A stretch of DNA of 64,000 nucleotides from Escherichia coli (GTDB lineage: Bacteria > Pseudomonadota > Gammaproteobacteria > Enterobacterales > Enterobacteriaceae). This document shows, piece after piece, positions 1 to 3,615 of the stretch. A model generated the notes under the pieces. That model was not told where the DNA came from and made no database searches. It saw only the letters and a list, made by a program, of their open reading frames with translations. Location: the NCBI RefSeq assembly GCF_003790525.1, contig NZ_CP033633.1; one strand, given 5' to 3'. A program made the position numbers and the translations under genes. The stretch's first letter is position 1, and each line of letters starts with the position of its first letter.

Positions 1-231
1 GGTTGCCGCGTTGTTAGCAGTGATGGCCAGCAGGTTGTAACGGGGGGCGGCAAAGTTGTGAAAGGGCCCCCAGTCAATCATGCCCCACAGTGTGTGCAGG
101 ATCAGGCAGGAGGCGAAGACGATTTCAGGTAAAAAGCGCCAGATGATAATCGCAAAGAGCAGGCATATGGCACCGACGATATACCATATAGCCATTGGAT
201 CTTCGGCGGCAGAAGTCTGTTGGTAAGACAC
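1..231 (-). CDS. hypothetical membrane protein, partial (start inside window, rest beyond left edge)
   Basis: Minus-strand open frame running off the left edge; candidate GTG start at 231 with GGAGGA 7 nt upstream, in-frame ATG at 195; hydrophobic N-terminus AIWYIVGAICLLFAIIIW. Absent from ORF track because no stop in window. Confidence 0.3.
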   Translation of the reverse strand, partial: MSYQQTSAAEDPMAIWYIVGAICLLFAIIIWRFLPEIVFASCLILHTLWGMIDWGPFHNFAAPRYNLLAITANNAAT

Positions 232-567
232 GGGGATTCCTCCATCGATAAATGGATAAATTTCGGGATGAGGCTGAGTGGAATTAATGCGAACAATCGC
301 CGGTAATGACCGGGCAGGGATGAAATAACCAGGGTATTTTCACAGGAACAGCAGAAGGCAGTGAGAGACAGGCACAAAAAAACGACTGGTGAGGTCGGTT
401 TTTTTGCTATTCCGGGGCGGAGTTGGTGACTCTGACCGAAAGGGAAATCACTCTACATCTAACACCATCATAGTAGGCTGCGCTTCTCTTTTTTGCAATC
501 AGAAAAATGACTATAATCGCTCCGTTAGCTCTGTCTGGTGATGCTTCTGCCCTTTAATAAAATATGC

Positions 568-744
568 TCAGGTTAAAAACCGAAAACCTTCCTGCACTTC
601 CTGCGCCTGTTCCCGTGAGTCAAACATGAGCCGGCTTTTCCCCGGAACTCCCCAGGAAATATATTCTACATCCACCCACCATTTTCCGTATTCTTCATAC
701 GGTCCGGATATCACTTTAGTGACAAATGCATCAACCAGGTTCAT
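568..744 (-). CDS. small hypothetical protein, 58 aa, below ORF-track length cutoff
   Basis: ATG at 744 preceded by AAGGTG about 6 nt upstream; TGA at 568-570; hand translation MNLVDAFVTKVISGPYEEYGKWWVDVEYISWGVPGKSRLMFDSREQAQEVQEGFRFLT. Confidence 0.3.
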   Translation of the reverse strand: MNLVDAFVTKVISGPYEEYGKWWVDVEYISWGVPGKSRLMFDSREQAQEVQEGFRFLT

Positions 745-894
745 TTTTACACCTTTCTGTTATTCTGCTTATTACGGCCAGCAAACAGCAAATATTAAAA
801 ATAACGCGGCGGTAAAAATGGCAATTTTTTCCCATACTGTATTTTTTCCATTTATTTGCTTTGAAATGTTTTTTTGCTTCATATCAGTAAATGA

Positions 895-1386
895 TTATTT
901 TTTATTCTGTTTCCTCCAGGCCCATGGTGGCACCGGATTTTCATCTGCCCATAATCCCCGTTTAAGGGCACGGGCATCGCGCTGGAGAGCCGGGAGAGTA
1001 TAGTCCTTGTTGTAGTCCGGGTATACCCAGGCCGCTCCCTTCCTGATTTGCTCACGATTCGCTTCAGTGCCGTCAGCGGTATAGACTCTGCCGAGAATAC
1101 GGTTATATCTGTCGGTCTGTAAGTATTGTACGGTTACAGGCTTACCGGCCACCAGGTCTTTTAACTGAGAGGCAGACCAGCGTCCAAAGGGCTGTTTCTT
1201 TTCCGGTGCATCAATATTTGCCAGGCGGACCCTGACAGTTTTTTTATCCTGTAATATTTCCAGTGTATCACCATCAAGAACGCGGATAACGTTTCCCTGA
1301 ATCTGTGCAGCGCAGAGGGAACCTGAAAAAATAATAGCGAGAGAGAACATATATTTTATCATTTTATTACATCCTTTTTTATTCAT
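895..1386 (-). CDS. nuc: secreted thermonuclease (staphylococcal-nuclease fold, plasmid Nuc-like)
   Basis: Translation has SNase-like motifs (VLDGDT, RLANIDAPE, DRYNRILGRVY) and a signal-peptide-like N-terminus MIKYMFSLAIIFSGSLCAAQ; true start may be the internal Met at 1362 or 1350. Confidence 0.7.
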   Translation of the reverse strand: MNKKGCNKMIKYMFSLAIIFSGSLCAAQIQGNVIRVLDGDTLEILQDKKTVRVRLANIDAPEKKQPFGRWSASQLKDLVAGKPVTVQYLQTDRYNRILGRVYTADGTEANREQIRKGAAWVYPDYNKDYTLPALQRDARALKRGLWADENPVPPWAWRKQNKK

Positions 1387-1526
1387 GAAAAACAGGCGGC
1401 GTTTATATTACGGAATAATATCGTTAAGTTGAGTTTATGTTTCCGGTAATGTAATGCTTCACGCAGAGCATGAATTCCAGTAGGCTAATATTCATGATGA
1501 TATAGTAACAGATATCCGGTGACAGT

Positions 1527-2150
1527 ATGCAGGAACATATTGATTATCAGATTGAGAAATATCAGTTCAGGGCCAGGAATGAGTCTCCGCGACTGATGCG
1601 CCAGTGGGCAGATGTCATGCGTGAATGCCGTGATACCGGAGCAGGAGCCAGGGAGCGGCTGCGGATTGCCTTACTTAATGTTGATTATGTGACCAGTTTT
1701 GAACTGCCGTTTCGTCTGCTGTTAACCCGGACACCGCAGATGATTGACAGCGTGCGGCGGGAATGGCAGCTCAGCCAGAAAAAAGTCGTATTCAATGAGC
1801 GGCAGCGGGGATGTGTATACAGTCTGCAGAATGACTTATCCGGCGTGCCGGATAGCTTCAGTTACAGTCTTGCGACGCGAATACGGCGGGTGGACAGCTA
1901 TGGCATGACGACGCGTTGTTTCACTGATATAGCCGGGCAGGTTAAAGCCCCGACAGCACGGCTGAAACTGGCGCTGGAAAGCGGGTTAATTGTCACCGCG
2001 CTGGATGGTCTGTTCTGGCTTGGTATTCAGCGTATTGCCGCAGATGTGCAGCGGCTGCGTCAGTCCGGAATGACAATCATCACCCGGGATGTTGAGGTCT
2101 CAGACTCGCTGACCGGAACCACACGGGTTGTTTCCGGGTACAGCCTTTGA
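1527..2150 (+). CDS. hypothetical protein, 207 aa
   Basis: Long ORF with protein-like composition; no family recognised by eye; converges on and overlaps the 3' end of the minus-strand small-gene operon. Confidence 0.4.
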   Translation: MQEHIDYQIEKYQFRARNESPRLMRQWADVMRECRDTGAGARERLRIALLNVDYVTSFELPFRLLLTRTPQMIDSVRREWQLSQKKVVFNERQRGCVYSLQNDLSGVPDSFSYSLATRIRRVDSYGMTTRCFTDIAGQVKAPTARLKLALESGLIVTALDGLFWLGIQRIAADVQRLRQSGMTIITRDVEVSDSLTGTTRVVSGYSL

Positions 2151-2950: not shown

Positions 2951-3138
2951 TCAACAGGCTTAATGCTGTCCAGGCGCAGTCTGCTCAGACTGTCGTGGCT
3001 GCCACAGCGGCGTCCAGTGCTTTTGCTGTAGCACTCCTGCCCCCTGATACACCATGCCGTTGGCGTTTCGTAGAGGCTGACACGTCGGGTTTTATCTTTA
3101 ATGATGAGAAGCCCGGTGTAAGTTTTTGTCTTTTTCAT
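2947..3138 (-). CDS. hypothetical small protein, 63 aa
   Basis: First ORF of the coupled small-gene run (4-bp overlap with next gene). Confidence 0.25.
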   Translation of the reverse strand: MKKTKTYTGLLIIKDKTRRVSLYETPTAWCIRGQECYSKSTGRRCGSHDSLSRLRLDSIKPVE

Positions 3139-3234
3139 CGGTGGGGTACAAACGCAGAAATTTTGTTGTCATTACATCATCAGTTTTAGCCTGCAGAGAC
3201 GCTGAAAAATCAGCGTTTTCAGACCCTGTTCAGG

Positions 3235-3477
3235 TTAGTGAATATTCTTGCCTGGCCTTTCGGCAATATCAATCCCCTGGAGTTGCATGGATATGCCCAT
3301 ACCGTTGACCATGAGGCTGTTTATGGACTGAACACCACATTTCATCATGAGCTCAAAACACAGTGCGCTGAGCATGCCGAGCGCCTCTTCTGAGGACTGG
3401 CAGTGTGTATTCAAAAGAGTATTGAACTGTTTAACGATATCCGGGGTGAGGCACATACTTTGTATTTCGTCTTTCAT
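3235..3477 (-). CDS. small hypothetical protein, paralog A of a duplicated small-gene family
   Basis: ATG at 3477 with AAGGAG about 5 nt upstream; shares motif DIVKQFNTLLNTHCQSSEEALGMLSALCFELM with the ORF at 4011..4193; preceded by a conserved ~420 bp repeat. Confidence 0.45.
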   Translation of the reverse strand: MKDEIQSMCLTPDIVKQFNTLLNTHCQSSEEALGMLSALCFELMMKCGVQSINSLMVNGMGISMQLQGIDIAERPGKNIH

Positions 3478-3615
3478 GACTACTCCTTATTTCAGGCATT
3501 TTGCATTTTGGGTTAATAACACGAAGCCCGTAGACGGAAAACCTGAGGCGTTCGGATGGGATAATTCCCGGGTATTTTCCTGTTCCGGATACAAAAAATA
3601 TAACGGCATGAAAAG

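Follow-up and report, generated by a model that had tools for sequence, protein, structure and literature searches.

In this study we asked whether a short open reading frame of 58 codons (hereafter ORF58), located between the genes trbA and nuc in a stretch of 64,000 nucleotides of Escherichia coli DNA (contig NZ_CP033633.1; the window), encodes a protein, and what role such a protein may have on the elements that carry it.

Position, start and coding status of ORF58

The initial annotation described a 58-codon ORF with an AAGGTG ribosome-binding site, a translation with several aromatic residues, and a location between a membrane gene at the edge of the window and nuc. We found the ORF and its Shine-Dalgarno-like motif as described (Table 1), and the strand, which had not been given, is the minus strand. 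The ORF is 177 bp long and its product, MNLVDAFVTKVISGPYEEYGKWWVDVEYISWGVPGKSRLMFDSREQAQEVQEGFRFLT, contains 10 aromatic residues out of 58. The location is also right, the gene at the edge being the 5' part of trbA. Regarding the idea of a missed ORF, it is indeed absent from the list of reading frames, only because it is two codons short of the 60-residue listing threshold, but RefSeq already annotates the identical protein.

Table 1. Features of the ORF58 locus, in window positions.
Feature	Position	Strand	Remarks
trbA 5' part	1..231	-	Edge membrane gene; GTG start at 231, GGAGGA RBS
AgrB antitoxin sRNA gene	374..462	-	Rfam RF02891, 41.6 bits for a gathering score of 40; outside ORF58 and downstream of it
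Deletion junction	544..551		320 bp absent with respect to pMS15236B
ORF58	568..744	-	58 codons, ATG start, stop included; RefSeq WP_001054907.1; phrog_8110 member
Antisense shadow ORF	626..1003	+	125 codons; overlaps ORF58, orf36 and the end of nuc
Shine-Dalgarno-like AAGGTG	750..755	-	5 nt upstream of the ORF58 ATG
orf36	772..882	-	Unannotated 36-codon ORF, 27 nt upstream of ORF58
nuc	895..1386	-	Thermonuclease/SNase family; Pfam SNase E 9e-23; upstream of ORF58

The window contains 299 ORFs of at least 58 codons, compared with 328 +/- 15 in composition-matched Markov-1 random sequence, and 22 of such ORFs are preceded by an SD-like motif, compared with 6.8 +/- 2.6 in the random sequence. For ORF58, length and ribosome-binding site by themselves are no more than what is expected by chance; judging from the alignments, it is the conservation of the frame that raises it above this expectation. 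Between the window ORF and the IncI1-type variants, 36-39 of the 174 coding bases differ and the proteins remain 83-86% identical. By the Nei-Gojobori method, pS against the IncI1 variant is approximately 0.70-0.73 (saturated), pN is 0.08-0.09 and dN/dS 0.03-0.05, and 26 of 37 differences fall in third positions. In the alignment, the IncI1 variants have AAGGA in place of AAGGTG, at a similar distance from the start.

The wobble positions of ORF58 coincide with those of the antisense ORF that overlaps it. A bias towards third positions is thus not enough to tell the two frames apart, and all six frames were compared. The sense frame was the best of the six: its amino acid identity is 86% and its pN/pS 0.11, while the antisense frame has 74% and 0.30. 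Among the viral homologs, 78 of 79 loci have the sense frame open, as do 6/6 phage loci. The antisense frame is uninterrupted in the window but in only one of those 79 viral loci, and 2-5 stops interrupt it in the phage homologs. Loss of the frame in homologous regions had been named in the initial annotation as what would speak against the gene, and the low dN/dS together with the open sense frame point clearly to the opposite outcome.

An explanation of the conservation by an RNA element or by the antisense ORF, leaving ORF58 untranslated, could appeal to the greater length of the antisense frame (125 aa), to the wobble positions that both frames have in common, and to the transcription convergent with dqlB in relatives, which could favour RNA features. 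The stops in the antisense frame, its poorer identity and pN/pS, and the existence of protein homologs that keep the same length and start at identities as low as 28-45% make this explanation extremely improbable, and on these comparative data it is already refuted. The antisense ORF was discarded as a real gene for its single open viral locus. We also rejected versions of ORF58 extended upstream (86-95 aa), as the extension is unconserved and the ATG, the RBS and the MNLxD start are conserved instead. On comparative grounds, ORF58 is a genuine protein-coding small gene.

A family of 58-residue proteins on plasmids and phages

The region is 99.8% identical to the E. coli plasmid p13KWH46-3 (IncK2/Z, MOBP, MPF_I), in which the same 177-bp ORF is annotated as a CDS (WP_001054907.1, 'hypothetical protein') identical to ORF58. 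The gene is annotated as well in other IncB/O/K/Z plasmids and in IncI1 plasmids, among them the IncI1 archetype R64 (NC_005014; WP_001054897.1, 76134..76310) and pESBL-EA11 of E. coli O104:H4, whose homolog Hp27 (O3K_26002; WP_001054898.1, 80960..81136) is 86% identical. By a distant DNA search, 1,814 plasmid records contain the ORF58 segment, and nearly all of these plasmids are conjugative. ORF58 is part of the backbone of I-complex plasmids (IncB/O/K/Z and IncI1). It is already known as an uncharacterised hypothetical protein in RefSeq, PHROGs and the pESBL table, and literature searches with the identifiers of the protein returned nothing beyond the pESBL TnSeq table.

The protein matches the phrog_8110 HMM (E 2.2e-18, 67.2 bits), with residues 1-57 aligned to profile positions 1-58 of 59. 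In this sense ORF58 is a member of the same family as phrog_8110, WP_001054907.1 and pESBL Hp27, with nothing that sets it apart from the family, and the PHROG function entry reads 'unknown'. By tblastn, full-length relatives with 38-53% identity were found in 18 phage records (Pseudomonas phages HU1 and AH02, an Aeromonas phage group, a crAss-like phage and Bacteroides phage BS-TP1), each annotated as a hypothetical protein of 58-63 aa. With E<=1e-3 as the limit, a profile search against 1.84 billion representative proteins recovered 493 clusters, counted at 50% identity, of which 223 also reached E<=1e-10; among the matches listed, most are exactly 58 aa long. The same length is found in 72 of 122 representative relatives, and 83 of the 122 start with MNL. 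In the alignment of 122-124 members, M1, N2, V8, P15, V26, G32 and G53 are nearly invariant and D5, W22, A47 and F56 are also strongly conserved, and conserved aromatic residues occupy positions 16, 19, 22, 23, 28, 31, 54 and 56. The ORF58 protein is soluble, mildly acidic and rich in aromatic residues (17%); the family has a mean net charge of -2.3, reaching -12, and no conserved basic residue.

Scans of the ORF58 protein with Pfam, NCBIfam and PADLOC gave no match, domain scans of 124 family members gave nothing consistent, and a PDB sequence search with the protein and the family profile found no match either. A Bact_hydrolase match (E 0.044, 2 of 124 members) was taken as noise. Some longer relatives (P0104, with 300 aa; P0088, P0110 and P0170) were considered as domain fusions and discarded, given that they look like upstream genes or extended starts run into the family gene. 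Phrog_8110 is a large family of stand-alone proteins of about 58 aa, encoded on mobile elements and with no characterised member. It comprises 493 clusters under strong purifying selection and with a fixed length, yet it has no Pfam model, structure or assigned function; it spans phages of Proteobacteria and Bacteroidota as well as the main ESBL-carrying IncI1 and IncK backbones, and it constitutes a cheap and well-defined target for functional work on small proteins.

A scan of viral contigs gave 338 relatives of ORF58, of which the best 80 loci were parsed. In this set, 78 of 80 encode 58 aa, 79 of 80 start with ATGA, and a tyrosine integrase gene (Pfam Phage_integrase, phrog_1) lies at most three genes downstream in 67 of 80. 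The upstream neighbours vary (NinX, a NinI-like phosphatase, a DNA methyltransferase), and apart from the proximity of the integrase no conserved gene partner was found in these best 80 of 338 loci. In a P22-like prophage contig, the homolog has erf, ssb and ninX to one side of it and int to the other. Lambdoid temperate phages carry accessory early genes of the 'ea/nin' type between the recombination genes and xis/int. The phage homologs of ORF58 resemble them in being small, stand-alone genes at the same position with variable neighbours, the likeness being one of positional class and not of homologous family; no named gene of lambda or P22 homologous to ORF58 was found, and tblastn gave only Aeromonas, Pseudomonas, crAss-like and Bacteroides phage records. 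In temperate phages the family lies directly before the integrase, among the accessory and dispensable genes of the early operon. In 11 of the best 80 viral loci the ATGA start overlaps the upstream stop by 4 nt, an overlap that suggests translational coupling of these homologs. The ATGA start could also contribute to the near-invariant Asn at position 2.

Plasmid neighbourhood and the lost dqlB gene

ORF58 is found between trbA and nuc in the window and between trbA and excA in IncI1 plasmids. The conserved plasmid unit is the pair orf36-ORF58 on one strand, and what lies further upstream varies (nuc, hha or nothing). The orf36 product, MKQKNISKQINGKNTVWEKIAIFTAALFLIFAVCWP, has a basic N-terminus and one hydrophobic helix, and its gene is located in an AT-rich island (27.5% GC) with no obvious SD. 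In IncI1 plasmids orf36 has the same length, with 59% nucleotide and 51% amino acid identity, and its frame is the only one open in both lineages and the one with the lowest pN/pS of the six (0.32). No CDS annotation was found under the orf36 tblastn matches among those listed (30 of 131 records). Its homolog in pESBL, Hp28, has 47 aa, with an N-terminal extension and a C-terminal frameshift, and the stop of Hp28 overlaps the ATG of Hp27.

We found no promoter-like site in the interval that separates nuc from ORF58; one lies before nuc, at 1525..1497. For this reason nuc, orf36 and ORF58 probably form one transcription unit with nuc as the leading gene. On the plasmids, ORF58 is located in an accessory stretch, preceded by the membrane peptide of orf36 and, in the window, probably co-transcribed with nuc. 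The nuc homolog of pESBL is dispensable for transfer (PMC4288162). As a side observation, the SNase part of the nuc protein, and only this part, gives a match to the PADLOC candidate-defence model C3a212 'SNc+LTD' (E 8e-15). Divergent from nuc, positions 1527..2150 of the plus strand encode a 207-aa protein of the NCBIfam family ECs1377 (301 bits, cut-off 190) with a C-terminal winged-helix HTH_39.

On the other side of ORF58, most plasmid relatives carry dqlB on the opposite strand, convergent with ORF58 and about 60 nt apart. In these relatives a GC-rich hairpin of 12 bp (GGGCAGAAGG..CCUUCUGCCC) lies between the two convergent genes, with about -23 to -24 kcal/mol on either strand, and it looks like a shared bidirectional terminator. 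A deletion of 320 bp removed from the window dqlB and one arm of this hairpin: set against 2020..2092 of the extracted pMS15236B locus, the window at 495..570 keeps one arm only, and the segment after ORF58 reaches -7 kcal/mol with no structure in the centroid. In pMS15236B, where this segment is intact, it has the 8-bp repeat CTTCTGCC at each end, and the sequence suggests that the loss was a microhomology deletion. Since the toxin gene dqlB was deleted, AgrB is an orphan antitoxin sRNA in the window. Furthermore, as the hairpin after ORF58 was lost, transcripts coming from ORF58 in the window may extend into agrB and the agrB terminator, around 374-405. Full-length matches in a single piece (e.g. 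NZ_CP019253.1, NZ_MN335919.1 and NZ_CP126939.1) suggest that the arrangement lacking dqlB is common to several plasmids.

The dqlB/agrB system has been validated on pOXA-48 as a type I system made of a peptide toxin and an antisense RNA, and its reported frequency is 83% among IncB/O/K/Z and 67% among IncI1 plasmids; pOXA-48 carries it between repA and trbC, with no mention of ORF58 (PMC12365149). This DinQ-like system is the immediate neighbour of ORF58 in the relatives and shares the hairpin with it. Its components are the hydrophobic DqlB peptide and the AgrB antisense RNA, and ORF58 is neither of them, being a soluble protein of 58 aa encoded on the strand opposite to dqlB.

In the TnSeq analysis of pESBL, the ORF58 homolog Hp27 received probabilities of 0.57 as non-essential, 0.42 as essential for maintenance and 0.01 as required for transfer (PMC4288162). 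The values for 'essential for maintenance' in the same study were 0.59 for hha and 0.76 for hp28, next to the 0.42 of hp27 (PMC4288162, Table 2), and Hp26, an ORF overlapping dqlB, was fully non-essential (PMC4288162). The depletion of insertions in hha, hp28 and, in part, hp27, which correspond to 2961..3529 of the extracted pESBL-EA11 locus, was left unexplained by the authors (PMC4288162). Insertions could be polar on ORF58 or abolish convergent read-through over dqlB; alternatively, nucleoid proteins could occlude the AT-rich DNA. The maintenance signal around Hp27 provides a concrete phenotype as a starting point.

These data bear on a reading in which orf36 and ORF58 form a two-gene module, either a membrane peptide and a cytoplasmic protein that serves as its partner or antidote, or a complex anchored in the membrane that aids plasmid maintenance. 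The pair occurs in both I-complex lineages despite the different upstream gene, the length of orf36 is kept together with its low pN/pS at 59% nucleotide identity, Hp28 and Hp27 overlap in pESBL, and the maintenance scores of both are as given above. Against it, the phage homologs of ORF58 have diverse upstream genes and no orf36-like neighbour, and the C-terminus of orf36 is frameshifted in pESBL. The TnSeq scores fit neither order of toxin and antidote, as insertions in an upstream toxin should be tolerated, and the AT-rich orf36 region could be shielded from transposition by nucleoid proteins. Taking both sides, we regard the module as quite unlikely.

Predicted fold and possible role of the product

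AlphaFold2 models of ORF58 reached a pLDDT of 92.3 with 9 sequences and 92.0 with 124 sequences, with the same secondary structure in both runs: strands at residues 5-18, 21-30 and 33-41, a helix at 44-49 and a strand at 55-57. A minimal OB-like beta-barrel, formed by three long strands, a short helix and a last strand, is therefore a credible prediction for this protein. The same fold (TM 0.84-0.91) recurs in a viral structure library, where Vibrio phage ICP1 (ORF214), a Klebsiella phage and Bacillus phages have it in proteins of about 57-69 aa, all uncharacterised. The closest structural neighbours of the model are the RNA- or ssDNA-binding OB proteins eS28, IF1/eIF1A, SSB, PriB and RPA, and the protein-binding OB domains of PAN type score equally well. 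The predicted likeness to minimal OB proteins (eS28; IF1/eIF1A/S1-like; PAN N-domain; SSB/PriB) is one of fold class only, with 8-17% sequence identity and no profile-level relation, and ORF58 differs from them in being acidic rather than basic, stand-alone and encoded on mobile elements. A ligand is not transferable to ORF58 from such generic OB matches.

The proposal that ORF58 is a small plasmid regulator or a protein antitoxin finds some support in its size, in the abundance of addiction modules around it (pnd/hok, dqlB/agrB) and in the ambiguous maintenance score of Hp27 (0.42). However, both adjoining addiction modules are of type I with RNA antitoxins (PMC12365149, PMC7602700; AgrB Rfam match) and no protein toxin is adjacent: the neighbours orf36, nuc and the AgrB RNA have no match to a toxin family, none of them being a co-oriented protein toxin, and the phage neighbours are variable. 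ORF58 is kept unchanged where dqlB was deleted, and it is kept in phages without such neighbours. As to the protein itself, the Pfam, NCBIfam and PADLOC scans found no antitoxin or DNA-binding domain (RHH, HTH, AbrB or PHD) and no match to a TA library; the predicted barrel carries no known motif of DNA-binding antitoxins or regulators, and for an HTH it offers a single helix of 5-6 residues, with no HTH match in Pfam. The predicted beta-barrel, the absence of a toxin neighbour in phages, the RNA nature of the antitoxin and the persistence of an intact ORF58 despite the deletion make a protein antitoxin or an HTH-type regulator hard to sustain. We consider this reading very improbable and already largely refuted, and the ECs1377-family protein at 1527..2150 is a more plausible local regulator than ORF58. 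In this sense, ORF58 should be counted as a gene, as RefSeq does, and the label of regulator or antitoxin is unwarranted.

Taken as a whole, the evidence makes it probable that ORF58 is a translated small gene of the I-complex backbone whose product is an OB-like protein that binds a partner stoichiometrically and has an accessory function. An enzymatic role is unlikely, because the protein is tiny and N2 and D5 are the only conserved polar side chains of the family outside the helix cap; being too small and too poor in such residues for an enzyme, it would most likely bind its partner in a stoichiometric manner. The binding surface may consist of the exposed aromatic residues, of the nearly invariant N-terminus MNLxD, or of both. 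A protein of the host or of the element is a possible, still tentative, choice of partner, and a single-stranded nucleic acid seems a less likely one; this weak preference is due to the acidic character of the family and its lack of a conserved basic residue.

A related possibility is that ORF58 acts as a CspA/S1-like binder of single-stranded nucleic acids, that is, an RNA or ssDNA chaperone of mobile elements. The predicted OB topology with RNA- and ssDNA-binding proteins as best structural neighbours, the 17% of aromatic residues with eight conserved aromatic positions, and the phage location near recombination genes (erf, ssb) and int are consistent with such an activity. We nevertheless find it unlikely, given the net charge of the family, the equally good scores of the protein-binding PAN-type domains, and the fact that no sequence relation to CSD, S1 or a Pfam nucleic-acid-binding family was detected in 124 members.

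Returning to the stoichiometric binder, we propose that its role would be an accessory one, in modulation of the host or in maintenance of the element, and not in the transfer machinery, because the gene occupies an early accessory-gene position in temperate phages and is dispensable for conjugation. A more daring extension, to which we give only a small chance, is that phrog_8110 represents an unrecognised class of small OB-fold effectors of temperate phages and I-complex plasmids, which would bind a specific host target (in defence, SOS/recombination or the envelope) for establishment or maintenance of the element, acting together with Hp28/orf36 on IncI1 and IncK plasmids. If true, it would explain the depleted insertions in hha-hp28-hp27 of pESBL.
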